42,282 bases of DNA, taken from IMG/VR virus record IMGVR_UViG_3300045988_004668; one strand, given 5' to 3'. The notes beneath the pieces are model-generated. The model was not told the origin of the DNA, ran no database searches, and worked only from the letters and a program-made list of their open reading frames with translations. This stretch comes from a virus. The position numbers were made by a program, and so were the translations under genes. Positions 11,034-26,592 of this stretch are shown piece after piece (position 1 is the first letter of the stretch; every line of letters begins with the position of its first letter).

Positions 11034-11037
11034 ATCA

Positions 11038-11065
11038 AGCGCCACCAGGTTCCCCTGGCGGCGCT
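11038..11065. terminator. Convergent (bidirectional) terminator hairpin between the J-domain gene and the giant gene
   Basis: AGCGCCACCAGG-ttcc-CCTGGCGGCGCT (12-bp stem, one mismatch) sits between the stops at 11033 (+) and 11083 (-). Confidence 0.6.
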
Positions 11066-11082
11066 CTTTCTATGTCCATCTG

Positions 11083-14000
11083 CTAGTCTTCCCGCTTTGC
11101 CTTCTCGCGCTCTGCGATCACCTGGCTGCCCACACGCTCGCTGTACGGATTGTTCTTCGCGCTCTTGCTTCCGGTGAACAGCTGCCAGAGCACGGCCCGC
11201 ATCTCGTTTGTCAGCTGCTGCGGCCCGTCGCCGCCCGGCAGCATAATGCCGCTGTGTCCGTTCAGCGCATCGATGGCGTTCTCAATCTCTTCGCCCTTGT
11301 AGCTTCCGTTCCCATCCTCGTCGAACTGCGGCAGGATTTCCTTCAGCTGCACCCACGTTCTTGCCTCGATGCCGTAGCTGTCGGCGATCTCGTATTTCTG
11401 CTTTGTCGAGTCCTTCATCACTGCGAGCAGTGCGTCGCGCTGCGCACTTGTTCCATCCACCGCGTCGATGGCTACCCGCCACTTCTGCACGTCGGACACA
11501 GTTTTCTTTCCCTCTTCCGGCGCAAGCTCTGCCATACCGAGCGCCACGTCCTTCGCGCTCTGTGCGTCCAGCCCGCCATCAATCGCGTCCAGATACTTGT
11601 CCACGGCTCCTGCCAGCTTCAGCTCCAGATAGTCCGCCATCTCTGCGCCGGTTGCCAGCACGTCGTCCGCCTTCTGCGTCGAGGTCTTCACTTTGTAGTC
11701 GTCGAATACAGCCGTCTTTGCTTTCTCTCCGGCGTATTCATACAGCCCGCTCAGCATCTTCTCCCGCGTCTCGTCGTCCGCCGTCTGGAACACGTCGCTT
11801 GCGGCCAGCGCCACCAGCCTGCTTCCGACGGCGCTGCTCCACGTCTTATCGTAGACCTGCTTCTGATAGGCCGAGAGCTTGCGGTCTTCGCCGTCAACGC
11901 TGATGCTGCCCGGCGTATCGGACGGAACCGCCTTTGTGAACCCGCTTTCGTAAAGAGACGCGAGCGTTTCGTTCGTCGTCTCATCCGTCTCCACGCGCCG
12001 GTTGTGCAGGGTATCGCTGATCTTGCGCTCCAGCTCCGCGCCGCGCAGGCCCTTCATCTGGTTTTTGTTCGCCGTGGCCAGCGCATCGTCGTATGCCGCC
12101 GCAAGTTCCGGCGAGGCCCAGCGCACCGTGCCGAGCAGATACGCCTCCAGGTTGTTGACCGAGATGCCCGGCAGGTATGTGGCCGCTGCAGCCGCCAGGT
12201 CTTTGATGCCGCCGACAATGTCACCGCTGTGCCGGTGCAGGTATTCGCCCATGCTTCCGCCGTTCTTCACGACGTCCGCTGCGTCCTTCAGCACATCCAG
12301 ACCGTTCTGCCCCTGCTCCACGATGGTCTCCACAACGTCGGACAGCTGCTCCAGGCCCGGCGTGTCGATGCCGTACCACTTGTCGCCCGTAATGATGTTG
12401 CCGATGACGTCCGCAAGTTCTTCTCCGTAGGTGACGATACCAGCCAGGTCTCCCACCAGCCCCAGCGCCATTTCCTTTGCCACGCTTCCTGCTGTAAGAT
12501 TCCCGTCCTCGTCGCGGTACGCCTTGCCCTTGCGCTTCCAGAGGTTCATCAAGAACTCGATACCCTGCGCCCAGATGTATCCGCCGACGGCTGCCAGGAA
12601 CGCAACGCCCAGCCCGTGCTTGGCCTTGTTGTAATTCTCCGTGTCTCCGATTCGCTTGTAGTATTCTGCCTCACCGGCACGCTGCCGCAGCGCATTGTAG
12701 GTCTGCGAGCTGTCCGACTTGAACATCGTAAACGCCCGCGTCACCGGATTCTTGCTCTTGCGCAGCGTGCCCTGGTGCATCTCGTCCGAGGTGGACTGAC
12801 TTCTCTCCACCGCTTCGTTGAATACTTCTGCAACCTTCTGATAGAACGGGCTGCTGCCGCTGTCGATCTGCTCCTGGCTTCCGGTCTCCAGCTCCGGGAA
12901 CTCAGCTCGTACCTTGTTTTCCGCCCACGGCCACAGCACGCTCGCGGCCCAGCCGTCCATGGCGGTGATCGCTCCGCCGCCGAAGATAAAGTTCGTGAAC
13001 TTGTTTGTCTGTGTCCAGTTCGGATTTTCCTTCAGCTGCTTGGTCTCCGGCGTAGAATAGCCCAGTGTTCTCCAGTCCAGCTCCTGCGTGTACTTCTCAA
13101 TCAGGCTCCGGTCGATGCGCTTTACCTGTCCCGGCGACGGGAAGTTCTTGAAGTCCAGCCACGCACCCGCCAGTGGAATCGAACCCAGCTGCTTAAAGAC
13201 GATGGATGGGTTTGCCCCTAACACGGCGCCGATGTAATTGCTGAAGACTTTTTCTGCGCCCATGCTCACGCTGTCGCGTGTGCTGGCGGCCCCGCCCTGC
13301 AGCGTCTGCACCAGGTCTTGGATGTACTTCAGGCTTTCGTCGCCCCAGTCGTGGGTGATAATGTCCGCCATGGAGTTTTCCCGCTCGCGCCAGTTGAGCA
13401 GTGTCTGCCAGTTTCGTGCCGGAATCGCCATGCCCACGAACCGTGCTGTCTGCTCCACATGGCGCTCAAAGGCGTCGAAGGCGCCGATGTTGTAGCTCGG
13501 ATTCTTGGAGAACTGGCGGCTCTTCAGATTGCCGACGCCTTCTGCCGTTGCGTCGTAGACACCCAGCTCGCTCTTGGTGTAGTTGGAGTTGGTGTAGATC
13601 GGCGTATAATTTTTGCTCACAGCCTTGTCGTACCCGTAGAGAATGTTGGAAACGCGGTTGATCTCCTTCTTGGCAAACACGTTGTAGTATTGCTCCAGCG
13701 CCTGTGCCAGCTCCTGTTCTTCCGGCGTTAAGCTGCCGACGATTGCCTTCACGGTCTCCGGCGCCATGCGTACAGTCTTTCCCTGGGCGAAGGCCTCGCG
13801 CCGCTTGCCCTGGCTGTAGAGCGTTTTGTCGGCGAAGGTGCGGCCGCCTTCCATGTGCCGCAGGTTTTCCGTGCTCTTGCTCTCCAGGTACATGTGCACC
13901 TTCTGTGTCGGCGTCATCCATACCGTGATCGTGTCCCCAAACTTCGGCGGCTTGCCGACCTCCAGTGCGCCGACCAGCTGCGGAATCTTCACCTCGTACC

Positions 14001-17000
14001 AGATGCCGTCGTCTCCCTGGCCGTCTGCCTTCTTGGCCCAGTCTTCATGCTCCGTCAAGAACTCGCGCAGCTGCTTTGTGGCGCTTACCGTGTAGTCGCG
14101 GATGTCCCGCTCGCCCTTCTCCAGCTGCTTGGCCATGGAGTACCACGCGCTGTTCGGGTTCCAGCCTGCCATGCGCTGCATCACGTTCATCGGAGAGAGC
14201 TGTTCCTGGTTGAACAGGCTGTCCAGCTTCTTTCCCTGGCGCGCCGCTTCGCCTGCCTTCGTCTGTGCGCCAAAGTCCAGCTCTTTCTTGCTGTCCGTGT
14301 AGACCTCTGCGAACAGCCGGTTCATGTCGTCGTTGATGACGTTGTTCCGGTTGTAGAACTCCGTCCGCAGTCCGACGGCTGCCTTATACAAATCCTGCAG
14401 CGCGTTCAAATCCATGTCCGCGATCTTCTTGTTGTCCAGGCGGTGAACGATCTTCTCCAGCTCTTTCGACGGCAGGAAGTTCGGGTCGTTTGCCTGTGCG
14501 TCCTTATACATCTCGGCCAGGTCTTTCCACGTCGCGTCGTATTTCTTGGAATAGCGCATCTCGTTTGCTGCGCTCACTGCGTAGATGTCCAGGTCTCCGA
14601 GCACCTCGTCCCAGGTTCCCTGCAGTTCCTCCGGCGCCCGGTACTGATTCTTGGCCAGCCACTGCAGTGCCTTCAGCGTCTTCTTCTGCTGCTCCTTCAG
14701 CTCGCGGTATTCCCGCTGCCGCTGGCTCATCTCCTTGCGCTGCTGCCGCTCCTTCGCGCGGCTGAGTGCTTCGCGCTGCCGGGCGGCTGCCGACTTCTCC
14801 CGCTCCTGCGCGATCTTCACGCCGGTTCTGTCTCGCAGATGAACCTCCAGCTTTGCTGTCCGCGTGAACGTGCGCAGTGCTTCGTCCATCTGTCGCTCGA
14901 TGTTATCCAGGACTTCGTCTTCCGAAACATATTCCTGCCCGGCCAGAAGAGCGGTGTACTGTGCCAGGCTCATGTTCTGGCTCTTGCCTTCTTCCGCCGT
15001 CTGCACAATGTTCTCCAGAATCTCCCGGCTGTCCAGATCGTCCGCATGGAACATCCCCGGCAGCGTGTCTGCAAGCTCTGCGTTGACCATGTCGATACCA
15101 GCTGCGCTCGTATCGTTTACCAGCATAACGCCTGCTGCAAATGCCTTCTTCCGGAAATAGCCCCAGTCGTCTCCGAACTCATGCTTCACGCTCTCCGGCA
15201 CATAGATGCGACGCCCCGCAATCTCCGACCGTGCCTGCTGCAGATACTCATCCGCTGCCACTTCCATGACGCCTTCTGCATACATCCGGTCGAAGAAGGC
15301 GTCCCGGTCTTCCTGCGTCAGTTCGCCGTTCTTGAGCATCCGGTCTGCCAGGCCGTCGATGATCTGGTTGATCTCTGCCCGCCGTCCTTCCGGAATGGAG
15401 AAGATGCCCTGCATATCCTGCCGCAGATTCCGCTTTGCAATGATCGGCAGACTTTCTGCTACCGGCTTCGTCTCGTTCTTCTTGCGCGGCTTTTTCTCCT
15501 TCTGCTCAGGCTCTGCCGGTTTGCTCTCCGACGCCTGCTCGATCTCGCCGCCGGTTTCTGCCTGCGGTTCGTCCACGGAGAAACGCATACCCTTCAGACT
15601 TCTGGCGATCTCCATGCGCTGCTCGTCGTTCCCGGCCTCGTACTCGATGACGTTCAAGCCCGCCGCCTTCATTTTCTCCAGCCGTTCCGGCGGGCAATCA
15701 TCCGGCGCAATGCAGACCGGCTCGTCGAATGTGACCACGCGCTGCGGCTTTGCCTCGAAATATCCCGTCGGCATTTCTGCCGCCTGGCGGTACATACCGG
15801 CAATCTCCGTGGCAAGCCCGCCGTCGATGTTATACCCCTGCCTGCTGAAGGCCTGCTGGATGCGCATGGCGTCCTGCCCGGCGTTCTCCATGAGAAGGCC
15901 CGCGATCTCATCCATGTCATAGCTTCCGGCCGTCTTCTGCACATCTGCAACGATGCCCCCGATGCGCTTGTCCAGCTCCTGCAGCAGCCGGTTATATTCC
16001 TCTTCCGGCATATTCTGCAGGCGGCCCTCGTCTGCATGGATGGCGTCCACGCTTTTGTATCTCGGCGTCGCGACAGATAAGATTCCCTTGGCGCCCACGC
16101 CCCAGTAGCTCTCGCCCCTGGCGCTCGCCCGGTTCATCGCTTTTACGATGTTCTCCGCCGTGTACGCGCCGTGCGTTTCCCGGAAGCTCCTGCGCTTGCC
16201 GGAAGCCGTGAAGCGTTCCTTCCCATTGTAGATGCCCGGCTCACCCAGCACGCCGCGAATCTGTCCGCGTACCCACGCCTCGACGTCTGCATCGTCCACC
16301 GCCTCGCGGAGCTTATCCTGCGTGGCATAGCGGTCTACGCCGTCGCGCGTCTGGCCACCGTCTTCATAAAGCGCTTCTGCGTTCCGGATGAAATCCTCTA
16401 CACGTGCGTCGCTGATCTTGTCCCGCTGCCGTGCAGTGCGCGTCTCGCGCAGCTCCGGCCTGCGGCTGAGCGCATATTCATGGTCTGCAATCCAGGAGGC
16501 CATGATGCTCTCGCGTGCCGTTTCCAGCTCTGCCGCTGTCAACCGCTCGCCGGTCTCCAGCTTCACATACAGCTGCGCCAGCTCCTGTGCGCCGATTTTC
16601 TCCGTGTACTCCTGCAGCGCCAGATTGCCGAAACTATCCCAGACTTTCTCCTTCAGTACAGGCTCGATGTCTTTGCCTTGCTCTGCAAGATATGCAGCCC
16701 GCACGGCGTCGTCTCTGGCCAGCTGTTTTGCAAGCTCCGCTTCGTCCATTCTGGCCACTTCGCCCACGCGGCCGCTGATGACGCTGTAACGGGAGAAGAT
16801 GCCGCCCGCCACCTGGTTTGCCAGCTGCGCGATCTTCTGCTCTGCGGCGCGTCCGGCCTCGTAGTTCACCTCCCGCTCGACGATTGCGTTTGCTGCCGTC
16901 GGCGTCCAGGCGTCTGCCCCGTAGACCTTGTTGCGCCGGTCTGCCTGCGGGTCGATGCTCTGGCGAGGGAAGACCAGCGTATAGTCTCCGTATTGCGTAT

Positions 17001-20000
17001 GCCCCTGGCTCGCCTTCACAATGGCGACCGACGGCGATGGGATAGCGCCGAGCTGCAGCATACTGTCCATCTTCTTGCCGTCCAGATTGTGAATGGCCAT
17101 CAAGTCCTGCGTCTGCTCAACCGGCTCGTCCAAAGAGAACCGGGCCTTGACAGGCAGCCGCTTCTCTGCTACACTGGCCTCAGAAGCATCTGTGGGCACC
17201 CTAACAGGGCGGTTTTCCGCTTTAGCTGTACCATTCTGGTACTGACGGGGAGGCGCAGGTGCTTTCTTTTCGTTCTCATTCAGCTGGATGGAGTACACAA
17301 ATTCTCCATCCGGCTTTTTCCGTACATTTGCCAGCAGGTCATAGACCCGTCCGTCGATTTGCACGGTCTTCACGAAATATTCCCAACCTGTAAGTCCCTG
17401 GTGCGCTTCGGATGTTTTGCCCTGTTCTTTGCCGCTTCCGCCGTGCTCTGCGTTTTCGACCAGATCAAAAATGTTCCCGTCCGCTCCTGTGTTGATCTTC
17501 GCCTTCCAGCCTCTTGGCGAAGACTTCTTATCGCCGTAGACGTTCTTCCGCAAATCATTCTCATCGAATGTCGCGTAATAGACTTCACCATCTCGCGCTG
17601 TGAACTTCGCTGTGCGGCCTGCGTATTCATTCCGCATGATGTCCATAAAGGCTTCCATGCGCTTCTTGTACGGCAGCTTGCGGACGGCCTCGCTGGTTTC
17701 ATACACTTCAGTCCCGTCGTCCGTCTTTCCGACGTAATCCAGGCTGTCGCTCAGATCGGCATAGACCGTGTTCTCATCAGCTCTGGCAGGCGGTGCCGCG
17801 CGGCGCTGCTCCGGTGTCAGCTCCCGGCGGCTGGCTGCGTCTCGCGCTTCAATCTCGCCTGCGGTATTGCGGTAAAGATCGTAGCTGTCCATCCCCACGC
17901 CGTTCTGAATGTCAATGATGCTGTCTTCCAGCTCTCCGATCTTCGCTTCAATGGCGTCGTCTTCCGCCGTCCACCGGTTCAAATCCCACGGCAGCTGTTC
18001 TTCCAGCCTGGCGATCTCTTCCCGGATGTCCGCAATTCTCGCTTCCTTCGCCTCGTCCCGGTGCTGCTGCCAATACTCCGGCGATGCGCCGCTCGCAAAC
18101 CCTTCTGCCTTCTGAATGGCGTGCTGGATTTCGTGGATGATCGTCGCCTCTGGTGCCGAGCGCAGCTTGCTGTCCAGCGCGATCTTGTTCTCGCTTGGAG
18201 AGAAATAGCCCTGCGTATTGCCCGGCAGCTCCTTGAACTCTACACGCACGTTGCGCAGCTGCGGGTACGCCTGGAACAGTTCCTCGTGATCGATGACGTC
18301 CTCCAGCGTTGCGCTGCCTCTGTCTACGCGCTCGCTTAGTCTCCCGTATTCTCGGCCCCAGGTCTTGTCCAACTCCTGAAGGCGCCCCTGGTCTTCCGGC
18401 TTCCACGCTTCTGCAGAACCGGTGAGCATCTTGTCCACGAGCTTCTGATATTCCGCATAGTCCGGGTGGTTCCGGCTGAAGGCTGCGTCTCCGCCGCGAT
18501 GATACTTCATCTTGCTGTCGTCGATCTCGAAACGCAGCTTTCCTTCCATGCCGGTGTGCCAGCCGGTTTCCTTTCGCACGCGCTCATCGTCTTCGCCCTG
18601 CATCTGAAGCTCCTGTGCGCGGGCGAGTGTCTTCTGATCTGCTGTGTTTGCATTCACGCCGCCGTAGCTGTAGCGCTCTGGCGGCCCAGTCCTGCGCTGT
18701 GTCGCCGCTGCCGTCTCGCTGCCCGGCGTGGTGATCTTCCGCTCCTGCAGAACCGCCTGCGCCTCGCTGCGGTACTTGTCGGCGTTCGCGCCGAAGAAGT
18801 TGATTCCCGCGTAAGCGTCCGCGCAGATTTCTTCTTTGACGATGCCGTAAGCCTCGGCCACTTCCTGCCCGGATGCGTGTTCCGGCAGATCGTACACACC
18901 GCGCAGGTTCTTGAGGTACTTGTCCATTATCGCGTCGAACTCTTCCCGGCTGTACTGTTCGACGATGGCCCGCTCGATCTGCCGCACAAGCCCCGGATTG
19001 TTGGCCGCGTAATCATGGAAGGCCTCGTGGTCTGCGATCTGGTCGATGTTCAGATAGCGGTGGTCTGCCTGGATGATGATGCCGTTTTCTGTGTAGACGC
19101 CGCGTGCCGCGCTCACCGAGCCATCTGCCTGGCGGATGCGGATGGAACCGAGCACATACGTCACCGGTTTCCCGGTCTCATAGGAAATGCGCTGCGCCGT
19201 CTGCTGCATCTGCGCATCCCAGTGAGATTCCGGCATGACCTGAATCTCGCGTTCCTCCGTTCCGTTCGGCAGGCCCAGGCTCTGGCTGCTTACTTTTTCG
19301 AGCCGTAGAGTTCGTCCAAGATTCTCTCTTTCAACAGCTGTTCTGCCCTGGTTAAAGGTGCGTTGTGGTCTGCCTTCTGCCAGGATTCCACTCTGTCCGC
19401 CGGTACTCTCACCGAGAATCCGTCCGCCGTCTCCATCAGGTAGCTGCTCGCTCTGCTGTTCTGTGCCTGGCTGCTGCCCGGCTGGAAGCTGTTCTGTGCC
19501 ATTGTTCATTCCTCCTTCATGCGTTGTTGCTTCATTCTGTACGCCGGGCTGCTGGCTCCCTGGCACCTGCTGCGCGGCAGTGTTGACCGGCTGCTGATTT
19601 TGTGCCTGCACGTTTCCGGACACGACCGCTTCGATGTCCGCGTCCGTCATCTGCCGCATGACGTTCTGCACTTCCGGGAAAGAAAGCAGCTTGCTGAGAA
19701 CTTCGCCATCTGTGATCTGCCCGCGATAGAACGCCTCAATGCCGCGTGCCATCGACTGTGCGCGTTTTCCGCTCACGCCCATGGTCTCCAGGCGTTCCAG
19801 CGGTGTGGCAGTCTGTTCGGTCTGCACCTGCTGCGGCGTCAGCAGCCCAGCTTCCTGCTGCGTGCTCTGTTCCAACTGCTGCGGCTGCACGGCTGCGGCC
19901 TGCGCCGCCGTCGGAAGACTTGGCTGCTGTGCCTGCTGGTTTTGTTCCGCTGCCTGCACTGCAATCTGCGCAGCCGCTGCCGCTGCGTTCCCATTTTGCA

Positions 20001-22203
20001 GAGCCTGCCCGCTCTCCGGCGGCTGTGTGTTCTGCGTTCCAGCCTGTGCCTGCTGCAGTCCCTGCTGGATGGCGGTCTGCAGCTCCTGCTCCACCTGCTT
20101 CTGCATCTGCGGGTCTGTCGGTGTCGTTGGCAGGTCTGCCGCCGTTGGCAGCTGGCCCGTGCTTCCGCCGCCCGGCAGCATGACGTTCGGTGTCTGCATG
20201 GCGCTGGACGCCGCAGCGTACCCGTTGACATACGCCCGCATCGCCTCGTCGATGAGATCGAGCGTTTCATTCAGATTGTCCACGGCCTTCTGCTGGCCCG
20301 CAATGTAATAGCTGTTGACGCTTTCACGCAGGCTCTGCGTCTGCTGCATGATGAACTGCGCCCGCTGCGCCTTTGCTTCCGGCGTCATGTTTTCCGTTCC
20401 GGCCGTCATTGCGCGGTATCCCTGCTCAATGGCCTGGTATGCCTGGTTCATCTGCGCCTTCTGCTGCTGTGTCGTCTGGTAGCTGCTGATTGCGCTGCTC
20501 AGCACAGAGAACGCAAACGCCGTCACGAGGTTTGTGGCGATCTCTTCTTTCGTCGGCTTTTCATCTGCCGCAAGATAGCCGACCGCCTGGTTCACGCTCG
20601 CGTTCGTCACGCCGCTTGCTGTCTGCCGTAAAAACTCCATGAACGGCGTCATCTTATGCGTATCACGCAGCACGTTGGCAAGCCCTGTTCCTACCAGTCC
20701 GCCTGCCAGGTTGCCAGCCATGCCCTGTGCGCCGCTGATGGCAATGCGTTTGAGGTAATCTTCCGTGCTCATGTCGCCCATGGCGGCTGCGCCTGCATTG
20801 TGTACGGCGTCAGCTCCGGCAAAGCTCAGCGCTCCCGCCGCCACCTTGAAGCCGAGGCTGCCGGTGTTCATTCCTGCTGCCGCAAGCCCGGCGCCCGCCG
20901 CTTCTCCGATGCCGGACATCAGCGCCAGACTTCCCGCGATCTTCGCGCCGCCCGCGAGCACCGGATGCTCTGCCTGCGCCCGCTGCGCGTTTTCCATCTG
21001 CCGGTGATACTCATCCTCGTTCGCGCCGAGCGCTTTTCCGACTGCAGCCGCAGCCGATGTCACACCCAGTCCCTCCTGCAGCCCGCTCGCAACCGCCGTC
21101 TGCTTGGAGTACAGTCTTGTGTAAAGAACATCGTAAATCTGCTGCCACTGCTTTGCCGCCTCTGTGTCACCCTTGCGCATCGCTTCCTGATACGGCGCAA
21201 AGGCCGTCACATTCTGCTCATAGCCTAGAAGCCCGCCGAACCCGCTCTGCGTGCCGATGATCTCTTCTGCCTCCTGCTTCTGGCGTTTCGTCCAGATTCC
21301 CGGAACGCTTGCCAGCGCAATGAGCCGGTCTTTATACCGTCCCACATTTTTCGCGGTGTACGTCTCCGGCCGCTTCGTGCCCTGCATCTGGCTCTCGCTC
21401 TCCTGGCGGTCGATCTCGTCCTGCAGCTCCTGGATGCGCCGGTCTGTTTCACTCTGCGCAGACTCCGCCTGGAAGGTTGGCAGCGTCGAATCGCTGGCTT
21501 TGCCCAGCATGGAAAGAATACTGGGCTGCTGCGCCTGCTCCTGCTTCTTCTGGCTCTCCAAGATGGCGAGCGTCCGCTTCATGCCCTGCAGCTGATCGTG
21601 CGCCACCGCTTCGTCCAGCGCCTTCTCGCGCTGCGTGGTGTAGTAATAATCCTGCGCATCATGCAGCTTTTCTGCGTAGCTGTTCGCAGCATCCACTGTG
21701 TCGAATACACCCAGGAACTCCCCGGTGTCGTAGAAGTGCTGCAGAATTTCGTCTCCGTCGCTGCTTCGGTATGCCTTCCCGTCTTTCATCCAGACCGACG
21801 GAAGCAACACCTCCTTGCCCTGAATGTTGAAGCTCGTGCTGTCCACGGTCGAGATGCTGCCGTCGGCGTTCCGATACTGCGGCCGGTTGTAAAGGTCGAT
21901 GTTGCCCACGCCATACTGGCCGATCTCCTGGTTGTATCGTTCCTTCTGCCGCTGAGAAGTTGGGGCCGGTGCGCCGAGTCCTGCAATGCTGGCAGGCGTT
22001 GCCGTCCGGTCGAATCCGCTTCTCTCGCTCTGAGGGGCCTTCTGCTCCTGCGCCTGGCGGCGCTGCTGTGCGGCGCTCTGCGCCTGGCGGATGAAGTCCT
22101 GCTTATTGAGGACGCCACCGGCCTCCTGGCCGGTGGTCTGTTCCCAGTTGCTCTGCTGCTTGTCCGCTTTGTTCAGGAAAGATTTCTTGGAAATAACGCT
22201 CAT
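11083..22203 (-). CDS. Giant 3,706-aa multidomain virion/ejection-type polyvalent protein
   Basis: A single uninterrupted ORF with AGGAGG before the ATG at 22203. It carries an N-terminal NIDLYNRP-type module, Gly/Ala-rich hydrophobic segments, Gln/Ala-rich linkers and two HExxH motifs (HEAFH, HEIQH). Repeated xFSxDEP-delimited modules occur, and there is a second hydrophobic segment near the C-terminus. Confidence 0.85.
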   Translation of the reverse strand: MSVISKKSFLNKADKQQSNWEQTTGQEAGGVLNKQDFIRQAQSAAQQRRQAQEQKAPQSERSGFDRTATPASIAGLGAPAPTSQRQKERYNQEIGQYGVGNIDLYNRPQYRNADGSISTVDSTSFNIQGKEVLLPSVWMKDGKAYRSSDGDEILQHFYDTGEFLGVFDTVDAANSYAEKLHDAQDYYYTTQREKALDEAVAHDQLQGMKRTLAILESQKKQEQAQQPSILSMLGKASDSTLPTFQAESAQSETDRRIQELQDEIDRQESESQMQGTKRPETYTAKNVGRYKDRLIALASVPGIWTKRQKQEAEEIIGTQSGFGGLLGYEQNVTAFAPYQEAMRKGDTEAAKQWQQIYDVLYTRLYSKQTAVASGLQEGLGVTSAAAAVGKALGANEDEYHRQMENAQRAQAEHPVLAGGAKIAGSLALMSGIGEAAGAGLAAAGMNTGSLGFKVAAGALSFAGADAVHNAGAAAMGDMSTEDYLKRIAISGAQGMAGNLAGGLVGTGLANVLRDTHKMTPFMEFLRQTASGVTNASVNQAVGYLAADEKPTKEEIATNLVTAFAFSVLSSAISSYQTTQQQKAQMNQAYQAIEQGYRAMTAGTENMTPEAKAQRAQFIMQQTQSLRESVNSYYIAGQQKAVDNLNETLDLIDEAMRAYVNGYAAASSAMQTPNVMLPGGGSTGQLPTAADLPTTPTDPQMQKQVEQELQTAIQQGLQQAQAGTQNTQPPESGQALQNGNAAAAAAQIAVQAAEQNQQAQQPSLPTAAQAAAVQPQQLEQSTQQEAGLLTPQQVQTEQTATPLERLETMGVSGKRAQSMARGIEAFYRGQITDGEVLSKLLSFPEVQNVMRQMTDADIEAVVSGNVQAQNQQPVNTAAQQVPGSQQPGVQNEATTHEGGMNNGTEQLPAGQQPGTEQQSEQLPDGDGGRILGESTGGQSGILAEGRPQRTFNQGRTAVERENLGRTLRLEKVSSQSLGLPNGTEEREIQVMPESHWDAQMQQTAQRISYETGKPVTYVLGSIRIRQADGSVSAARGVYTENGIIIQADHRYLNIDQIADHEAFHDYAANNPGLVRQIERAIVEQYSREEFDAIMDKYLKNLRGVYDLPEHASGQEVAEAYGIVKEEICADAYAGINFFGANADKYRSEAQAVLQERKITTPGSETAAATQRRTGPPERYSYGGVNANTADQKTLARAQELQMQGEDDERVRKETGWHTGMEGKLRFEIDDSKMKYHRGGDAAFSRNHPDYAEYQKLVDKMLTGSAEAWKPEDQGRLQELDKTWGREYGRLSERVDRGSATLEDVIDHEELFQAYPQLRNVRVEFKELPGNTQGYFSPSENKIALDSKLRSAPEATIIHEIQHAIQKAEGFASGASPEYWQQHRDEAKEARIADIREEIARLEEQLPWDLNRWTAEDDAIEAKIGELEDSIIDIQNGVGMDSYDLYRNTAGEIEARDAASRRELTPEQRRAAPPARADENTVYADLSDSLDYVGKTDDGTEVYETSEAVRKLPYKKRMEAFMDIMRNEYAGRTAKFTARDGEVYYATFDENDLRKNVYGDKKSSPRGWKAKINTGADGNIFDLVENAEHGGSGKEQGKTSEAHQGLTGWEYFVKTVQIDGRVYDLLANVRKKPDGEFVYSIQLNENEKKAPAPPRQYQNGTAKAENRPVRVPTDASEASVAEKRLPVKARFSLDEPVEQTQDLMAIHNLDGKKMDSMLQLGAIPSPSVAIVKASQGHTQYGDYTLVFPRQSIDPQADRRNKVYGADAWTPTAANAIVEREVNYEAGRAAEQKIAQLANQVAGGIFSRYSVISGRVGEVARMDEAELAKQLARDDAVRAAYLAEQGKDIEPVLKEKVWDSFGNLALQEYTEKIGAQELAQLYVKLETGERLTAAELETARESIMASWIADHEYALSRRPELRETRTARQRDKISDARVEDFIRNAEALYEDGGQTRDGVDRYATQDKLREAVDDADVEAWVRGQIRGVLGEPGIYNGKERFTASGKRRSFRETHGAYTAENIVKAMNRASARGESYWGVGAKGILSVATPRYKSVDAIHADEGRLQNMPEEEYNRLLQELDKRIGGIVADVQKTAGSYDMDEIAGLLMENAGQDAMRIQQAFSRQGYNIDGGLATEIAGMYRQAAEMPTGYFEAKPQRVVTFDEPVCIAPDDCPPERLEKMKAAGLNVIEYEAGNDEQRMEIARSLKGMRFSVDEPQAETGGEIEQASESKPAEPEQKEKKPRKKNETKPVAESLPIIAKRNLRQDMQGIFSIPEGRRAEINQIIDGLADRMLKNGELTQEDRDAFFDRMYAEGVMEVAADEYLQQARSEIAGRRIYVPESVKHEFGDDWGYFRKKAFAAGVMLVNDTSAAGIDMVNAELADTLPGMFHADDLDSREILENIVQTAEEGKSQNMSLAQYTALLAGQEYVSEDEVLDNIERQMDEALRTFTRTAKLEVHLRDRTGVKIAQEREKSAAARQREALSRAKERQQRKEMSQRQREYRELKEQQKKTLKALQWLAKNQYRAPEELQGTWDEVLGDLDIYAVSAANEMRYSKKYDATWKDLAEMYKDAQANDPNFLPSKELEKIVHRLDNKKIADMDLNALQDLYKAAVGLRTEFYNRNNVINDDMNRLFAEVYTDSKKELDFGAQTKAGEAARQGKKLDSLFNQEQLSPMNVMQRMAGWNPNSAWYSMAKQLEKGERDIRDYTVSATKQLREFLTEHEDWAKKADGQGDDGIWYEVKIPQLVGALEVGKPPKFGDTITVWMTPTQKVHMYLESKSTENLRHMEGGRTFADKTLYSQGKRREAFAQGKTVRMAPETVKAIVGSLTPEEQELAQALEQYYNVFAKKEINRVSNILYGYDKAVSKNYTPIYTNSNYTKSELGVYDATAEGVGNLKSRQFSKNPSYNIGAFDAFERHVEQTARFVGMAIPARNWQTLLNWRERENSMADIITHDWGDESLKYIQDLVQTLQGGAASTRDSVSMGAEKVFSNYIGAVLGANPSIVFKQLGSIPLAGAWLDFKNFPSPGQVKRIDRSLIEKYTQELDWRTLGYSTPETKQLKENPNWTQTNKFTNFIFGGGAITAMDGWAASVLWPWAENKVRAEFPELETGSQEQIDSGSSPFYQKVAEVFNEAVERSQSTSDEMHQGTLRKSKNPVTRAFTMFKSDSSQTYNALRQRAGEAEYYKRIGDTENYNKAKHGLGVAFLAAVGGYIWAQGIEFLMNLWKRKGKAYRDEDGNLTAGSVAKEMALGLVGDLAGIVTYGEELADVIGNIITGDKWYGIDTPGLEQLSDVVETIVEQGQNGLDVLKDAADVVKNGGSMGEYLHRHSGDIVGGIKDLAAAAATYLPGISVNNLEAYLLGTVRWASPELAAAYDDALATANKNQMKGLRGAELERKISDTLHNRRVETDETTNETLASLYESGFTKAVPSDTPGSISVDGEDRKLSAYQKQVYDKTWSSAVGSRLVALAASDVFQTADDETREKMLSGLYEYAGEKAKTAVFDDYKVKTSTQKADDVLATGAEMADYLELKLAGAVDKYLDAIDGGLDAQSAKDVALGMAELAPEEGKKTVSDVQKWRVAIDAVDGTSAQRDALLAVMKDSTKQKYEIADSYGIEARTWVQLKEILPQFDEDGNGSYKGEEIENAIDALNGHSGIMLPGGDGPQQLTNEMRAVLWQLFTGSKSAKNNPYSERVGSQVIAEREKAKRED

Positions 22204-22213
22204 ACTTTCCTCC

Positions 22214-23572
22214 TTACTTGTACTTCACGGAGTCGTCGATCTTGATTCCGCTCACCTCGTAAATCCGTTTCGCCACGTCAGACCACTGCTGCTTCGACAT
22301 CTGCCCGCGTGCGCCGACGGCCACATCATAGGCCCTGTCATAGTTGCCCTGGCCGAGCAGTGTCGAGATCGTCCGCTGTACGCCGTTATACGAATCTCTC
22401 GCCATGGCCACGTTGCCGCTGTAGCTGCCGCCGCCGTTGATCTTCGAGCCTCCAGCGCTTCCGGAGCCGGAACCGCCGCCACTGCTTCTAGCGCCCTTGG
22501 CCGCCAGCGCTGCCTCGTATGCAGATGTGTCGATGCCCAGCTTCCGGAGATACGAATAGTCGCCGTACTGTGCAGCCAGCTGTGCCTTCTCCAGTGCCTC
22601 GCCGCGAAGTCCCGTCTGCTGGTTGATCTCGTCAAGCAGGTTCTGGTAGCTGAAACTGCGGTCTGTGTTGTACTGGTTCAGCTCGTTCAGATACTTCGTG
22701 TAGTCCAGCTGCTCCAGTGCGCTCGCCGTCTGCACGTCGTTTGCAATCCGGCTGTAAGCATCTGCCCATGTCTGGTAATCGAAGTTCCGGTTCGTGTTGT
22801 ACTGCTGCAGCTCGTTGAGATACTTGTCATAGTCCGACTGCTCTGCGCCCTGCACGGCGCCCAGATCGCTGAGCTTCATGTTGTAGTCGTTCATGTACTT
22901 GTTGTAGGCCAACTGATAAAGCTCCGGAATCTTGTCTGTCATCTGCGCCGCATAGTAGTCTCCGGCCTGCGCCGCTGCCGTCGCCGCATAGCTCGATGGG
23001 ATGCCGCCGGACGCTGCTGCCGCTGCGCCGATGGCGTTCTGCTGTGCACGGTCTCCTTCGCGGGTGTACTGCTTGCGGTACTGGCTGTAGAGCTGGTCGC
23101 GCTCCGGGTCATAGCTGAACGCTTCTCGGTTCAAAATCTGCTTCAGCAAATCCTGGATGGTCTCGTCATACCGGTTCGTGTATTCCGGCTGTGCGACGTC
23201 ATAAGAATAGTCGCCATAGTTCAGCTGCTTGTTCAGAAGATCGTCCACAAGCCCCGTTCGGTTCGAAGAGTACGTCGGCTTTGCATCCTGCTGGAAGCTG
23301 TTCGGGGAAAGTGGGTCGAGGTAGAACTGTGAACCCGCTCCGCCGCCCGTGTAGTTTCCGTAGCTGCTGCGGATGCCTTCCGCGCCTAGGTTTGCCAGTG
23401 CCCGCTGCTCCGGCGTCGTGGCGTTGTGGTAGTCGCGCTTGTATTTCAGGATGCTCATTCCCGCATCCGGATTCTGCTGTGCCAGCTTCAGATCGGCCGA
23501 CGAGAACTCGCTGCCGAGTCCGGAGTTCGTCAGCTCCCGCTGAAACTCGTCGTATGTAAATCTCTGTGCCAT
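22214..23572 (-). CDS. Virion-associated protein (452 aa) with internal repeat and Gly/Ser linker
   Basis: AAAGGAG precedes the ATG. DYDKYLNELQQYNTNRNFDYQ and DYTKYLNELNQYNTDRSFSYQ are repeated. It lies between tail genes and the giant gene. Confidence 0.65.
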   Translation of the reverse strand: MAQRFTYDEFQRELTNSGLGSEFSSADLKLAQQNPDAGMSILKYKRDYHNATTPEQRALANLGAEGIRSSYGNYTGGGAGSQFYLDPLSPNSFQQDAKPTYSSNRTGLVDDLLNKQLNYGDYSYDVAQPEYTNRYDETIQDLLKQILNREAFSYDPERDQLYSQYRKQYTREGDRAQQNAIGAAAAASGGIPSSYAATAAAQAGDYYAAQMTDKIPELYQLAYNKYMNDYNMKLSDLGAVQGAEQSDYDKYLNELQQYNTNRNFDYQTWADAYSRIANDVQTASALEQLDYTKYLNELNQYNTDRSFSYQNLLDEINQQTGLRGEALEKAQLAAQYGDYSYLRKLGIDTSAYEAALAAKGARSSGGGSGSGSAGGSKINGGGSYSGNVAMARDSYNGVQRTISTLLGQGNYDRAYDVAVGARGQMSKQQWSDVAKRIYEVSGIKIDDSVKYK

Positions 23573-23590: not shown

Positions 23591-25201
23591 TTACAGTTCG
23601 CTTCCTGTGTAGACCTCGCGCACCAGCGAATACAGTCTGCACCCGCCGCTGCCCGTCATCCGGATGCGGAAGTGATCGCACCGGCGCGGCACGATCGGCA
23701 GATAGAAGCTGCGTTTCTTTTCTGCCTGCAGCGTCTTCACCTCGCGCCAAACGCCGTCTGAGTCGAACTGCATCTCGATCTTCACGCTAGCCCCTTCGTC
23801 CAGCTCCAGCCGCACCAGCAGCTTTCCGATGCCCTTCTTCTGCGGAATCGGCACCGACGCTGAGGAATACGTTGTGTACTCGTAGAAGTCCGCCCACTCC
23901 GTCATCCAGGAGACCTCTGTCTCCCGAACCGCCGCGGCTTGCGCCGTCCTGGCATTTCCGTTCAGCAAAAGCCTTCCGTCTGCAGCCAGGAAATACAGCT
24001 CCCCGTTCCAACCCCAGCCGACAACCTCCAGCGCATCTTCCCGGTGCCACAGGCCCCGCAATGTGTCATACACAAAAAGATGCCAGGCGCCCGCCGTGTC
24101 CTTCATCGAGACGTAATACTTCGTTCCGTCGCTGCCGCCCACGGCGTTCCGGAACCGCTGCGTGCCGAACGCTGCGCCCACCTGCTGCGGGATGCCGCCG
24201 GAGTAGGCGACAATGCCCGTGCGGGCCAGGTAGAAAAGCGTCTCTCCGGCAATGGCGATGGACGCATCGCTGCCAGCTTCCACGCCCAAAGAGGCGCTGC
24301 CCATCACTTGGAAGTTCGACGGCTTGTCTCCGTAGACCTTGTAGATGTGCTCTTCCTTGAAAAAGCATGGATAACCCAGGTAGCTGCAGCACGCCGTGAA
24401 GTCTCCCGCGCTGCCGACATTTACGCTGTAGCTGTCCGTGGCCACGCCGTCAAATACATTCCAGTTGAAGATGTCTCCGAGTTTGCTGGCGTAGATTGTG
24501 TCTTCCTTGCAGCCCCAGAGCCTGTTCTCATTCTCACATAGGAAGTCCATATCCGGCACGGTTCTCTTGATGGTCAAGGTCTCGCTGTCCCCGCCGCTTC
24601 CGATCGTGAAGGTGTTTTCATAGAAGCGGAGGTAGTCGCCGTCGATTTCCCGGATGATCGGCGTTTTGTTGTTGCTCTCATGCTTCACTGCGCCGGAGAT
24701 CGTCACCGCGTCTCCAACCTTGAAGACAGAATCCCACGCTGCGCCGGACGCATAGATCGTGTTGGCCTTTGCGTCCTCGCCTGCGTAGGTTCCGTCCTGA
24801 ATCTTTGCGCTGCCGGTGAAGCTCGCTTCCATCGTGCCGAACTCGTCCGCCAGGCGGTTATAATACTTCTTGTCCGGCAGGATGATGATGTACGCGCCCA
24901 GGCTCGCGAACTTCTTTCTCCCGTTCGTGACAGTTCCCTTGAGCGTTCCGTCTGCGTAGAACCCCGTTCCGTCCACCCAGTACAGCCCGTCGTGCGCGTA
25001 GAACCCGTTCGGTTTTGTGAGTGTGCGTACCTTCCAACGCGGGCGCCTGGGTGCGAGCAGGGGATAGAAGTCGCTCGTCATATTTTTCATGTCCCAGATG
25101 TCGCCGTTGTCTGCGCCGAGCGTGTGGTTGTACCCGCCGAACTTTGTCTGCTTGTATTTCTGGATACCGTCCTGGTTTGCCATTGGCGGCAGTCCGATCA
25201 T
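23591..25201 (-). CDS. Tail structural protein (536 aa; function not assignable by eye)
   Basis: ATG at 25201 overlaps the upstream stop (ATGA) and follows GGAGGTG. Large beta-rich sequence located inside the tail block. Confidence 0.6.
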   Translation of the reverse strand: MIGLPPMANQDGIQKYKQTKFGGYNHTLGADNGDIWDMKNMTSDFYPLLAPRRPRWKVRTLTKPNGFYAHDGLYWVDGTGFYADGTLKGTVTNGRKKFASLGAYIIILPDKKYYNRLADEFGTMEASFTGSAKIQDGTYAGEDAKANTIYASGAAWDSVFKVGDAVTISGAVKHESNNKTPIIREIDGDYLRFYENTFTIGSGGDSETLTIKRTVPDMDFLCENENRLWGCKEDTIYASKLGDIFNWNVFDGVATDSYSVNVGSAGDFTACCSYLGYPCFFKEEHIYKVYGDKPSNFQVMGSASLGVEAGSDASIAIAGETLFYLARTGIVAYSGGIPQQVGAAFGTQRFRNAVGGSDGTKYYVSMKDTAGAWHLFVYDTLRGLWHREDALEVVGWGWNGELYFLAADGRLLLNGNARTAQAAAVRETEVSWMTEWADFYEYTTYSSASVPIPQKKGIGKLLVRLELDEGASVKIEMQFDSDGVWREVKTLQAEKKRSFYLPIVPRRCDHFRIRMTGSGGCRLYSLVREVYTGSEL

Positions 25202-25602: not shown

Positions 25603-26592
25603 TCAGCTCGTGCTCAGCGGCGAATCGTTGATGTAGACCGTACCGTAGAATTTGATATTCCCGCCCGACGAGATCGTCACGCCGCTGTTGCCGTAGATGT
25701 AAATATTGTCGTCCGCCTCGATGGAGATGCCGCCCGCCGACTGCAGCTTCATGGCAAACGACACGCCGCGAATGTAGTTCGTGTAGATGAACATTCTGTA
25801 CCGGTTTTCATACTGGCTGCCTGCTCCGTTGGCGTCCAGCCGGATGCCGCCTGCGGTGTAGCTGCTGTTCATATAGCAGAACTCGATCTCGCCGCCCCAG
25901 ATGCCGTTCGACTGCAGGATGCTTCGGAAGGTGCTGCCTTCGATGGTGCAGCCGTAGATGTCGATGGCGTCGATCGTGCCGGTCGTGATGTTGCTGCCGT
26001 TGATCGTTGTCTGTCCTGCGGTGGACAGGTCTGAGAACGTGACCATGCCGCTGAAGCTGATCGACTTGCTTGACACCACCACGCCGTCGCGCATGAGCTT
26101 AATCGTGCTGCTGCTTTCTCCGTTGGAGACCGACAGCGTGATGCTGTTGACCGTCTGTGTCAGAGACGATACGCTGCCGTCCAGCGTCGTGATTCTGCTC
26201 TGCAGCGCTGTCGCCGTCTGCTGCAGCGACGAAACATCTCCTTCTGCGTTCGTGATGCGCGTCGTCAGGCTGTTGGCCGTCGCAGTTAGAGACGTGATGT
26301 TTCCTTCTGCATCTTCCAGCCTCGCACCCAGGCCCTCTGCCGTGACCTGCAGCGCAAGAATCTGCTTCTCGTCATTTTCTAGCTGCACATATACCGGCTC
26401 CGTGATGATGTTCACGATCTCATCAAAGCCTGTCTCATTGAAGTTGTCTTTGTCCAGATTGCAGAACGAATACCGCAGCTGCTCCAGCAGCATATAGAGA
26501 TAGCTCGTGATCTGCTCGATCTTGTCCTTGTCGGACGTTTCTTTCGTGAACTGTGGAAACCCCGTGTCCGCGCTCAAAATATTGGATGGCAC
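25603..26592 (-). CDS. Tail fiber / tail spike-like protein
   Basis: It has a coiled-coil repeat region (ITSLTATANSLTTRITNAEGDVSSLQQTATALQSRITTLDGSVSSLTQTVNSITLSV) followed by a Gly/Asn/Ser-rich beta-helix-like C-terminus. GTG at 26592 follows AGGAGG. Confidence 0.65.
   Translation of the reverse strand: MPSNILSADTGFPQFTKETSDKDKIEQITSYLYMLLEQLRYSFCNLDKDNFNETGFDEIVNIITEPVYVQLENDEKQILALQVTAEGLGARLEDAEGNITSLTATANSLTTRITNAEGDVSSLQQTATALQSRITTLDGSVSSLTQTVNSITLSVSNGESSSTIKLMRDGVVVSSKSISFSGMVTFSDLSTAGQTTINGSNITTGTIDAIDIYGCTIEGSTFRSILQSNGIWGGEIEFCYMNSSYTAGGIRLDANGAGSQYENRYRMFIYTNYIRGVSFAMKLQSAGGISIEADDNIYIYGNSGVTISSGGNIKFYGTVYINDSPLSTS

Follow-up and report, generated by a model that had tools for sequence, protein, structure and literature searches.

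A giant mosaic gene in a phage of gut Oscillospiraceae, probably encoding a polyvalent internal virion protein

What kind of protein takes up a quarter of a phage genome in one reading frame, and where would such a protein act? The locus that raises this question lies in IMG/VR virus record IMGVR_UViG_3300045988_004668, a stretch of 42,282 nucleotides that was analyzed whole and is called the window here. An exact 119-bp direct repeat at both window ends indicates a complete genome with 42,163 unique bp, and 26.4% of this complete genome is a single ORF. Giant polyvalent proteins are regarded as the weapons of a phage that arrive first in the host cytoplasm, and, as far as we are aware, almost none of them have been studied experimentally. 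The reading that we consider probable places the ORF among the late genes of a temperate, podovirus-like phage that infects gut Oscillospiraceae and takes its product to be a polyvalent internal virion (ejection) protein.

11083..22203, minus strand: giant gene, 3,706 aa plus stop codon, with an ATG start and an AAGGAGG ribosome-binding site upstream

A frame of this length could also appear if several genes had been merged through sequencing errors, in assembly or annotation. We found no support for such an artifact, the one relative that stops early (L029, at aa 2405) doing so near a contig end, and the explanation is effectively refuted by unbroken frames in many independent assemblies. In at least three datasets (IMG/VR 3300045988, IMG/VR 3300023502, and MAG CALCJW010000026.1), near-identical contigs carry intact ORFs of 3,510 to 3,705 aa, every relative whose ORF lies wholly inside its locus has one of 2,320 to 3,709 aa (stop to stop), and intact frames are also present in species-representative genomes. 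The GC3 of the giant ORF (0.76) is like that of neighboring minus-strand genes, its codon-position GC is typical of the genome, and the long plus-strand ORFs that overlap it have the wrong codon-position GC pattern. Measured against a 97.7%-identical relative, dN/dS is 0.10 overall and 0.07 to 0.22 in every region. The giant ORF is one real gene under purifying selection along its whole length, and the uninterrupted 3,706-aa frame covering 26% of the genome that a preliminary description had reported is borne out by the intact assemblies and by dN/dS. Many database fragments of family proteins begin at a position equivalent to aa 987 to 999; a gene split there in relatives was considered and rejected, since the single case checked is cut by a contig end and complete loci are continuous. 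The structural half found no match among GenBank phages by Megablast, and hence no cultured close relative in that collection, while tblastn with the C-terminal 1,491 aa returned only two weak fecal-virome fragments.

The preliminary description also placed the gene at the end of the late operon, which holds in that it is the last gene of a co-directional terminase-to-tail block. Upstream on the same strand are the genes for TerL, portal, major capsid, needle-like, and internal virion proteins, and the final part of the block contains the following.

25603..26592, minus strand: coiled-coil protein of 329 aa, gp58-like, with weak tail-needle matches; opens the block
23591..25201, minus strand: "internal virion protein" of 536 aa, phrog_511; conserved syntenic partner two genes upstream of the giant gene
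22214..23572, minus strand: function-unassigned protein of 452 aa; conserved syntenic partner directly upstream of the giant gene

The block runs from the needle-like gene through genes for proteins of 130, 536, and 452 aa to the giant gene. Eight related loci have the 536-aa internal virion protein, the 452-aa protein, and the giant protein in this same order, and four have the needle-like gene as well. Judged from sequence, the order matches a podovirus ejection-protein block, in which the 452-aa protein is a candidate second ejection protein, and gene content is what leads us to infer podovirus morphology for the phage. One could instead suppose that the giant protein never enters a virion, being either a late cytoplasmic multienzyme protein with a task such as host shut-off, superinfection exclusion, or interphage conflict or a captured ICE-type polyvalent protein delivered otherwise. 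Polyvalent proteins do occur on conjugative elements too (PMC5512222), but this supposition is very unlikely to be right: the phage genome is complete and has terminal repeats, and the genes scanned include none for a T4SS. The giant gene adjoins the structural genes, points the same way as they do, and invariably comes after an internal virion protein gene, and the same architectural logic in phages H66 and phi24B, described below, goes with proteins that are found in virions.

From its N terminus, the protein consists of a variable Gly/Ala-zipper region, a conserved zincin, swappable effector cassettes (aa ~1180 to 2210), a conserved helical core of ~1,280 aa, and a tail. Four features were delimited in the N-terminal part.

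21409..22053, minus strand: mobile N-terminal module, aa 51 to 265 (by sequence comparison)
20464..21246, minus strand: Gly/Ala-rich small-xxx-small (glycine-zipper-like) hydrophobic region, aa ~320 to 580 (by motif density)
19783..20103, minus strand: Q/A/P-rich low-complexity linker, aa 701 to 807 (by composition)
19387..19539, minus strand: second Q/A/P-rich linker, aa 889 to 939 (by composition)

The module at aa 51 to 265, which includes a weak DUF7336 match at aa 153 to 188, is 77% identical in L034, an otherwise different giant protein, and in the ~97%-identical phages L012 and L029 the stretch from aa 49 to 190 is swapped for 107 unrelated aa. Zipper motif density at aa ~320 to 580 is three times the median of the protein; the sequence of this region is unconserved, the same feature occurs within the first 900 aa of 96% of 103 full-length relatives, and the region is probably membrane-active. 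The Gln/Ala/Pro-rich linkers and hydrophobic Gly-zipper segments that had been described earlier are both present at these positions, and the first ~900 aa have the look of a membrane or linker region. The same part had been called tape-measure-like, a resemblance that proved to be compositional only, with no tape-measure family matched.

That resemblance is nevertheless what a tape-measure or other tail protein of a long-tailed phage, with enzymatic domains embedded in it, could present: such proteins likewise have hydrophobic segments of the Gly/Ala-zipper kind and stretches that are coiled or of low complexity, and some BFVD relatives of the giant protein come from contigs auto-labeled Myoviridae or Siphoviridae. 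We regard a tail protein as extremely improbable. Tape-measure, tail-tube, sheath, and tail-chaperone families were absent from the giant ORF and from the 20 larger neighboring proteins scanned, and the neighbors match needle and internal-virion-protein families. By the usual scaling, a tail measured by a protein of 3,706 aa would be about 0.5 micrometre long, and close relatives vary from about 2,300 to 4,075 aa through cassette swaps, a variation incompatible with a length ruler.

Between the linkers and the core lie the domains by which the protein can be classified.

18664..19386, minus strand: zincin-like block 1, aa 940 to 1180, with HEAFH at aa 1059 to 1063 and a conserved downstream EExxADAYAG
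18505..18672, minus strand: LPD23 domain (PF18838), aa 1178 to 1233 (E 1e-21, 76.9 bits, cut-off 27)
18079..18330, minus strand: second zincin, DUF6782 putative metallopeptidase (Pfam), aa 1292 to 1375, with HEIQH at aa 1357
17293..17475, minus strand: LPD3-like segment (PF18798), aa 1577 to 1637 (25.7 bits, just under the cut-off of 27; E 1.3e-5)
15571..17145, minus strand: PBECR5 cassette (PF18814), aa 1687 to 2211, made up of the Pfam part (aa 1687 to 1891) and an extension of ~320 aa

Both zincin-type motifs that had been noticed by eye were found, and they differ in how they can be assigned. The DUF6782 zincin scores 31.4 bits (cut-off 27, E 1.4e-7). Block 1, present in ~80% of family members, had no Pfam, NCBIfam, or PDB sequence match and is called a zincin from HExxH and the conserved Glu alone, no model recognizing it; we consider it a candidate processing protease. 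The PBECR5 match is the strongest (E 5.8e-57, 193.8 bits, cut-off 25), with the Pfam part a predicted BECR-fold RNase. A further 13 family proteins, as well as Acinetobacter phage Ab9, keep the whole cassette together, with H1705, P1724, S1725, and D1764 invariant. In the ~97%-identical phage L005, aa 1217 to 1641 are exchanged for 224 other aa. No ART domain was found in the giant protein, although ART-PolyVal is present in relatives, and no RNA polymerase family turned up when the entire protein and its 460-aa segments were scanned against Pfam, PHROG, and NCBIfam. Membership in the MuF/SPP1 gp7 group was rejected because the Phage_Mu_F signals (PF04233, 14.4 bits against a cut-off of 29.6; TIGR01641, 14 bits against 39.65) are subthreshold and cover ~40 aa at aa 2174 to 2218.

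Searches with the core recovered 143 clusters with 38 to 99% identity to it, and the family that the core defines comprises 1,945 representative clusters (50% identity) in Oscillospiraceae (pro)phages. Its full-length members have 2,000 to 4,075 aa, and the core is always C-terminal; ahead of it, relatives carry ART-PolyVal, ADPrib_exo_Tox, PBECR1/3/5, MuF_C, LPD3, LPD23, or RadC domains. Comparing module order in relatives had been proposed as a check, and the outcome is a conserved core with differing front cassettes: relatives retain the core and exchange cassettes, even when the phages are ~97% identical. The polyvalent class and its domain families were defined by Iyer, Burroughs, Anand, de Souza, and Aravind in 2017 (PMC5512222), and the likeness is close. 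The giant protein is likewise one very large chain of unrelated conflict-type domains (PBECR RNase, zincins, and LPDs), its gene likewise lies among the virion genes of a portal-terminase phage, and ortholog mosaicism is common to both. It departs from the class in that more than half of it (the N-terminal ~900 aa and the ~1,280-aa core) falls outside that domain catalogue and in that its first zincin is matched by no Pfam metallopeptidase model. With PBECR5, LPD23, and the DUF6782 zincin above Pfam cut-offs and the mosaic architecture of ~2,000 related clusters, the earlier assignment to polyvalent-type giant phage proteins is supported. The accompanying expectation of a rich source of unknown effector domains was overstated, since the variable effector stretch spans only aa ~1180 to 2210 and is mostly Pfam-named, the remainder being a structural-looking core and the membrane- or linker-like N-terminal part.

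The core, which we also call the carrier, and the tail complete the protein.

11614..15441, minus strand: conserved C-terminal core ("carrier"), aa 2255 to 3530, ~1,280 aa, mostly alpha-helical
11086..11613, minus strand: C-terminal tail, aa 3531 to 3706, in only about half of relatives

Among its invariant residues are H2783, within NLRHMxGGRTF, and further polar or aromatic positions (several Asn, Arg, Glu, and Trp). Near aa 3198 to 3222 the core has a helix of amphipathic or hydrophobic character, and five diverged relatives each have one hydrophobic segment above threshold at the corresponding place; the C-terminal hydrophobic segment of the preliminary description is therefore present as a helix, but in this protein it falls just under the hydrophobicity threshold. 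An AF2 model of the core (pLDDT 73.7) is mostly helix by DSSP. The core has no relative in Pfam, NCBIfam, or PDB: Foldseek of the model against PDB gave nothing at E <= 0.001, and neither the protein nor the family profile found more than low-complexity noise when searched against PDB sequences. Against BFVD, the model found 71 matches (best E, 5e-27), all of them C-terminal fragments of giant proteins and named PolyVal ART, nuclease, MuF-C, LPD, or structural protein. An AF2 model of the PLxRFG core (NCBIfam NF032893, "tail-700," F116-like podoviruses) matches 7 of the core's top 50 BFVD fragments, and its other matches include "Internal virion protein D" from phages CRP-4 and CRP-5. By predicted fold, the core appears related to the C-terminal regions of further giant polyvalent proteins, and it may be linked transitively to the PLxRFG core and to IVP-D, with the caveat that cross-family BFVD matches have TM values of 0.25 to 0.3 and that large all-helical proteins can inflate Foldseek scores.

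Profile comparisons did not detect these links at the sequence level. With hhalign, family profiles gave no significant alignment to Pseudomonas phage H66 gp60 (E 0.22), to the PLxRFG profile (E 0.1 and 0.35), to T7 gp16 (E 0.73), or to the L034 C terminus. The NF032893 model, which scores 801 bits on the H66 gp60 C terminus and 757 bits on P0124, had no match to aa 2255 to 3706 even at E <= 10. As a lead only, the same co-linear stretch (AV..[ST]Q ... [TM]FK[TS] ... hydrophobic helix) was aligned with H66/PLxRFG in two nonsignificant hhalign runs.

Several known virion proteins show how such a product could be used. H66 gp60 is of near-equal size (3,787 aa), is encoded by the last gene of the structural module, and follows the same plan of a variable polyvalent N-terminal part and a conserved C-terminal core; its LPD23 and zincin block is ~29% identical to that of the giant protein, and the predicted fold of the PLxRFG core matches a set of viral structures that overlaps the set matched here. 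It differs in having a methyltransferase-like segment. Its record is annotated as verified in the virion by mass spectrometry. Hardies et al. (PMC4819975) class H66 gp60 among the IVP-D homologs, ascribe a cytoplasmic domain to it, and show that IVP-D homologs can host cytoplasm-destined domains. PLxRFG proteins differ in their hosts, which are Proteobacteria, versus Firmicutes here. [quoted passage not shown] Its payload is an RNA polymerase rather than the RNase, zincin, and LPD cassette of the giant protein, whose host is a Firmicute. T7 gp16/IVP-D, the proposed inner-membrane part of the ejectosome, is likewise largely alpha-helical and encoded by the last and largest of the internal-protein genes; the giant protein has neither sequence similarity to it nor a lytic transglycosylase, the link being transitive via PLxRFG and BFVD models. 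Stx phage phi24B gp47 (2,811 aa), with LPD domains and a metallopeptidase, is abundant in virions by proteomics, invisible in cryo-EM maps, and proposed to be an encapsidated ejection protein (10.64898/2026.04.10.717836); it carries another LPD set (LPD1, LPD5, LPD38, and MuF-C) and is set beside the giant protein by description. A 2,198-aa putative polyvalent protein of coliphage PTXU04 is fitness-essential.

Packaging, ejection, membrane insertion, and processing are what we infer for the giant protein, by analogy in synteny, fold, and precedent where packaging and delivery are concerned. That it would be present in the virion and injected with the DNA is suggested by its conserved place after needle-like and internal virion protein genes, by its fold-related core with transitive links to H66 gp60 and IVP-D, and by the precedents of N4 gp50, H66 gp60, and phi24B gp47. 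The core, with the 536-aa and 452-aa proteins, would place a few copies inside the capsid, in the role of T7 gp16/IVP-D, of the N4 gp50 C-terminal domain, or of the PLxRFG region of H66 gp60. At infection, the protein would leave via the tail, ahead of or with the DNA; its glycine-zipper region and core hydrophobic helix could contact the cytoplasmic membrane and help build a DNA conduit, and the middle cassettes would enter the cytoplasm before any phage gene expression. There, PBECR5 may act on host RNA and the zincin on host proteins, in takeover or counter-defense. Because the host is a Firmicute, the T7/N4 model of an ejectosome across outer membrane and periplasm cannot apply unchanged.

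The evidence on the core also bears on a narrower role, in which the protein is packaged in the head and injected like the T4 Alt or P1 Dar proteins but takes no part in a conduit, the core being a capsid-targeting or portal-docking module (with MuF-like logic) or an unrecognized enzyme. Its many invariant polar residues might belong to an active site and not to a channel, weak MuF/SPP1 gp7-like signals lie just before it, true MuF_C domains occur in relatives, and the sequence link to T7 gp16 is absent. We nonetheless find cargo without a conduit rather improbable, as the gene keeps its third place in the internal-virion-protein block, extensive helicity with a hydrophobic helix is typical of IVP-C/D (PMC4819975), the core has a transitive fold link to IVP-D, and those MuF signals are far under threshold.

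A short motif lies at three module boundaries.

18658..18675, minus strand: RYSYGG, variant junction motif, aa 1177 to 1182, at the zincin-1/LPD23 boundary
17122..17142, minus strand: RFSLDEP junction motif, aa 1688 to 1694, at the start of the PBECR5 cassette
15565..15585, minus strand: RFSVDEP junction motif, aa 2207 to 2213, at the end of the PBECR5 cassette, ~45 aa before the core

The xFSxDEP strings had been recognized at the outset as delimiting blocks; RFSLDEP and RFSVDEP are confirmed, and RYSYGG adds a variant. Their consensus, R[FY]S[VLIM][DE][DE], is enriched about 80- to 140-fold, the strict form occurs in only 39 of 103 full-length relatives, and the RFS motif is absent from H66 gp60. 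It was not met in the passages of PMC5512222 consulted, and it is the most original detail of the giant protein. More speculatively, the family-wide zincin-1 might cleave at these junctions and free the modules. An extended form of this idea is a self-processing "polyprotein warhead," in which zincin-1 would cut at lineage-specific junctions, in the capsid or just after ejection, and release strain-specific effectors into a Gram-positive host before phage transcription. The released cocktail would be an RNase, a second zincin, and LPDs, with ADP-ribosyltransferases in relatives; the core, a fold with no solved representative, would build the conduit through the membrane for a podovirus ejectosome that is not of the phi29 type and that works in a cell lacking an outer membrane; and the motif would be a portable cut signal for cassette exchange between phages. 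We regard this as a tentative possibility, doubtful as a whole.

The design of a carrier with swappable enzymes is already known from other phages, and our data do not overturn current views but extend a known principle to a new host group with sharper boundaries. The anatomy is clean (conserved carrier, conserved zincin, swappable payload), the family is very large, and its Oscillospiraceae hosts are abundant, poorly studied gut bacteria. The part under arms-race pressure can be recognized from the cassettes that ~97%-identical phages have exchanged, and the junction motif offers a concrete hypothesis for the processing of such proteins. Since neither a Pfam or NCBIfam model nor a solved structure represents the core, it would merit definition as a family. 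Members are found in Oscillospiraceae prophages, one homolog having an integrase downstream, and relatives are known in the cultured strains Oscillibacter valericigenes Sjm18-20, where the prophage lies around 2.25 Mb of AP012044.1, and Pseudoflavonifractor sp. An85, which makes these predictions testable.

The giant gene is a single constrained gene that encodes a polyvalent domain set on a conserved carrier with a swappable payload, and its placement in a block of internal virion proteins is conserved. The window is a complete genome, assembled as a circle or terminally redundant, because an exact direct repeat of 119 bp stands at both ends (1-119 and 42164-42282), leaving 42,163 unique bp. 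The minus strand carries nearly all genes, coding coverage is ~94%, and one gene takes up 26.4% of the genome:

11083-22203 (minus): giant gene, 3,706 aa, ATG start after AAGGAGG

Its GC3 is 0.76 and its codon-position GC profile is the same as that of its neighbours, unlike the profiles of the long plus-strand ORFs overlapping it. The preliminary description had proposed one uninterrupted frame that resequencing might break into several genes. Near-identical contigs from several metagenomes and one MAG keep the frame intact (3,510-3,705 aa), and a stop-to-stop frame of 2,320-3,709 aa is present in every relative with the ORF wholly inside the locus. Comparison with a relative at 97.7% identity gives a dN/dS of 0.10 for the whole frame and values of 0.07-0.22 for the five segments taken singly; as it is low in all five, the whole frame is translated and constrained, and the single ORF stands. 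Of 79 aligned database fragments belonging to family proteins, about 30 begin exactly at aa ~987-999 (window ~19207-19245), directly after a Q/G-rich linker. The one case checked was a contig-end cut, suggesting that assemblies break in this hypervariable low-complexity stretch.

Pfam named four domains in the protein.

Pfam domains of the giant protein
aa 1178-1233: LPD23, E 1e-21
aa 1292-1375: DUF6782 metallopeptidase, around the second HExxH, 31.4 bits vs. a cut-off of 27
aa 1577-1637: LPD3, slightly under cut-off
aa 1687-1891: PBECR5, E 5.8e-57

PBECR, LPD and zincin "MPTase" domains belong to the vocabulary of polyvalent proteins as Iyer et al. (PMC5512222) defined them, and PBECR5, LPD23 and the DUF6782 zincin, together with the carrier and its swappable payload, support the polyvalent-type interpretation. 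The two zincin-type motifs reported earlier are present as HExxH. The protein also has the Q/A/P linkers, and in one region Gly/Ala small-xxx-small motifs are three times as dense as the protein's median. Searches of Pfam, PHROG, NCBIfam and PDB sequences gave no naming match for the first ~900 aa, aa 940-1180 or the last ~1,450 aa. The PBECR5 match is a portion of a ~530-aa cassette (aa 1683-2215), which 13 other family proteins and Acinetobacter phage Ab9 carry as a single unit. Residues H1705, P1724, S1725 and D1764 are among those invariant in the cassette; most PBECR clades are described (PMC5512222) as having a conserved active-site His in the N-terminal helix.

The family's anatomy was drawn from IMG/VR relatives and two protein-database searches, which were mutually consistent. 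What is new is a large Oscillospiraceae-phage family, defined by an unannotated C-terminal core (aa ~2255-3530) kept in all relatives of two sets (120/120 and 103/103). Identity in the core is ~30% to 99% among the matches listed, and with a 50% identity threshold the core defines 1,945 clusters, 714 of them with E <= 1e-30; full-length members span 2,000-4,075 aa, always with the core C-terminal. A first zincin block (zincin-1, aa ~940-1180), with HExxH ... EExxADAYAG conserved, occurs in ~80% of members. Between it and the core lies a variable middle (aa ~1180-2210), where ~25% of relatives carry the LPD23/zincin-2 block, ~10% the PBECR5 cassette, and others ART-PolyVal, an exoenzyme-type ADP-ribosyltransferase, PBECR1, PBECR3, MuF_C, LPD3 or RadC. 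The N-terminal ~900 aa are unconserved in sequence, yet contain the densest Gly/Ala-zipper window in 96% of full-length members; the last ~175 aa, a C-terminal tail, are found in about half. The earlier expectation of a rich source of unknown effector domains therefore has to be reduced, since carrier, membrane or linker parts, not undiscovered effectors, probably account for ~60% of the protein.

Also new are the cassette swaps, which are recent. One ~97%-identical phage has 224 unrelated residues in place of aa 1217-1641, and another has 107 residues in place of aa 49-190. A module at aa 51-265 recurs, with 77% identity, in an otherwise different 2,775-aa giant protein encoded by another phage (L034; IMGVR_UViG_3300045988_097562, 9557-17884); this protein also has the zincin block and cassettes in common with the family. 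Its C-terminal ~1,000 aa match neither the core profile nor the PLxRFG profile and are a third carrier type, and the same phage encodes a homologous internal virion protein. One database homolog of the core (P0075) has a complete L-rhamnose isomerase (RhaA, 571 bits) at its N-terminus, followed by ART-PolyVal and the core; this fusion is most likely a chimeric assembly or gene-call artefact.

A third new feature is a junction motif. The RFSLDEP and RFSVDEP strings, previously written as xFSxDEP, are both present and are cases of a family motif, R-[FY]-S-[VLIM]-[DESN]-[DE], seen 73 times in 126 family proteins (0.5 expected from shuffles) and 55 times in 103 full-length representatives (0.66 expected). 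In 29/103 proteins it is positioned 18-115 aa before the core begins, and it was found neither inside the core of the family proteins examined nor in any of 120 PLxRFG-family proteins. In the giant protein, RFS motifs flank the PBECR5 cassette on both sides, with F1689 and F2208-S2209 invariant across cassette homologs, and a variant sits at the zincin-1/LPD23 boundary. The obvious hypothesis is that the motif is a candidate processing or docking signal.

An AlphaFold2 model of the core (aa 2255-3454, from 41 sequences; mean pLDDT 73.7, pTM 0.58) is mostly helical with one beta-hairpin. Foldseek found no match in the PDB (best E, 0.16) and 71 matches in BFVD at E <= 0.001 (best, 5e-27), at 10-20% identity. 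Names among these include PolyVal ADP-ribosyltransferase, nuclease, MuF C-terminal domain, LPD-containing and type I restriction enzyme, as well as a "structural protein" of Tenacibaculum phage Gundel_1. Because almost every match is the C-terminal fragment of a long viral protein, the predicted fold identifies the core as a widespread carrier module of giant phage polyvalent proteins, one without a solved structure.

Pseudomonas phage H66 gp60 has a part that is ~29% identical to the LPD23 and zincin-2 block. The gp60 protein, a 3,787-aa "PLxRFG domain-containing protein," closes the structural module and is annotated as a virion part verified by mass spectrometry. Hardies et al. (PMC4819975) described gp60 as a homolog of internal virion protein D (T7 gp16) that, like N4 gp50, has a domain whose action must be cytoplasmic. 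Its C-terminal 887 aa, like the core here, are conserved and preceded by variable ART-PolyVal, LPD3, PBECR3 or MuF_C. By hhalign, the relationship of the core to H66 gp60/PLxRFG was not demonstrable by sequence (E 0.1-0.35), nor did T7 gp16 align (E 0.73); the NCBIfam PLxRFG model NF032893 gave nothing on the core vs. 801 and 757 bits on PLxRFG proteins. A PLxRFG-core model (pLDDT 78.3, pTM 0.69) matches "Internal virion protein D" of Roseobacter phages CRP-4 (E 4e-10) and CRP-5, and 7 of the core's top-50 BFVD fragments. Through this transitive fold link common ancestry of the two cores is likely but unproven, because cross-family TM-scores are low (0.25-0.3).

The same-strand genes upstream run in a defined order.

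Gene order leading to the giant gene
large terminase, portal, 324-aa protein, major capsid protein, tail-like proteins
diversity-generating retroelement, then endolysin-like-domain protein
coiled-coil needle-like protein, 130-aa protein, 536-aa "internal virion protein" (phrog_511), 452-aa protein, giant protein

T7-like and P22-like podoviruses place their internal (ejection) proteins after the tail and needle genes, the last being the largest, and the layout here, known from genes alone, is of that kind. The order 536-aa protein, 452-aa protein, giant protein recurs in all 8 related loci with any neighbour homolog; the 536-aa protein is 37-57% identical across them, and the needle-like gene precedes in 4. 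An Oscillibacter valericigenes prophage, the most distant locus checked, has no homologs of these neighbours. The N-terminal part had been called tape-measure-like, which was not borne out: no tape-measure relationship emerged, and scans of the giant ORF and 20 larger neighbouring proteins found no tail tube, sheath or tape-measure genes.

Hosts are Oscillospiraceae (MAGs and isolates of Faecousia, Oscillibacter, Intestinimonas and Pseudoflavonifractor). The group is temperate, because the complete Oscillibacter valericigenes Sjm18-20 genome contains an integrated copy and tyrosine integrase and repressor-like genes follow one homolog. A 351-aa HTH protein (8644-9699, minus; PHROG "transposase," weak rve integrase-core signal) may catalyse integration; in a related phage (L067), a tyrosine integrase gene follows that phage's own giant gene instead. 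Directly downstream of the giant gene here, 10158-11033 (plus) is the only sizeable plus-strand ORF without a longer minus-strand overlap. The structural block also encodes an endolysin-like-domain protein (26651-27424, minus; PF25309, E 7e-57) and, at 28250-28834 (minus), a carbohydrate-binding protein with CBM_5_12; both may be carried by the virion to degrade or bind a thick Gram-positive cell wall.

By analogy with T7 gp16, N4 gp50 (PMC13434306), H66 gp60 and phi24B gp47, we propose that a few copies of the giant protein would be packaged in the capsid together with the 536-aa and 452-aa proteins and would exit via the tail during infection. The glycine-zipper N-terminus and the core's hydrophobic helix could then contact the membrane, and the cassettes would work in the cytoplasm ahead of phage transcription. 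More speculatively, zincin-1 might cleave at the R[FY]S junctions; Iyer et al. (PMC5512222) suggested autoprocessing of this kind by the zincin domains of polyvalent proteins. A putative polyvalent protein of 2,198 aa is fitness-essential in coliphage PTXU04 (PMC11879866), in keeping with a structural or ejection role rather than a dispensable accessory.

The retroelement is a complete diversity-generating one with two targets (window 28804-31060 and 2509-2641).

Components of the retroelement
28804-29961 (minus): reverse transcriptase
30200-30332: template repeat
30928-31060: variable repeat VR1, 3' end of a 553-aa Big_3 and DUF6273 protein
2509-2641: remote variable repeat VR2, 3' end of a 224-aa protein, 28 kb away

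All VR1 mismatches (18/18) fall at template adenines, and the VR2 protein has the same C-terminal domain as the VR1 protein. An Rfam RT-2 RNA (RF03077, 140.6 bits; 29971-30195, minus) has the template repeat on one side and the reverse transcriptase gene on the other. Elsewhere, a type II hammerhead ribozyme (RF02276, 46.7 bits vs. a gathering score of 37, E 1.3e-6; 1942-2012, minus) adjoins the replication-initiator gene (1095-1850) and overlaps a small ORF (1886-2305).
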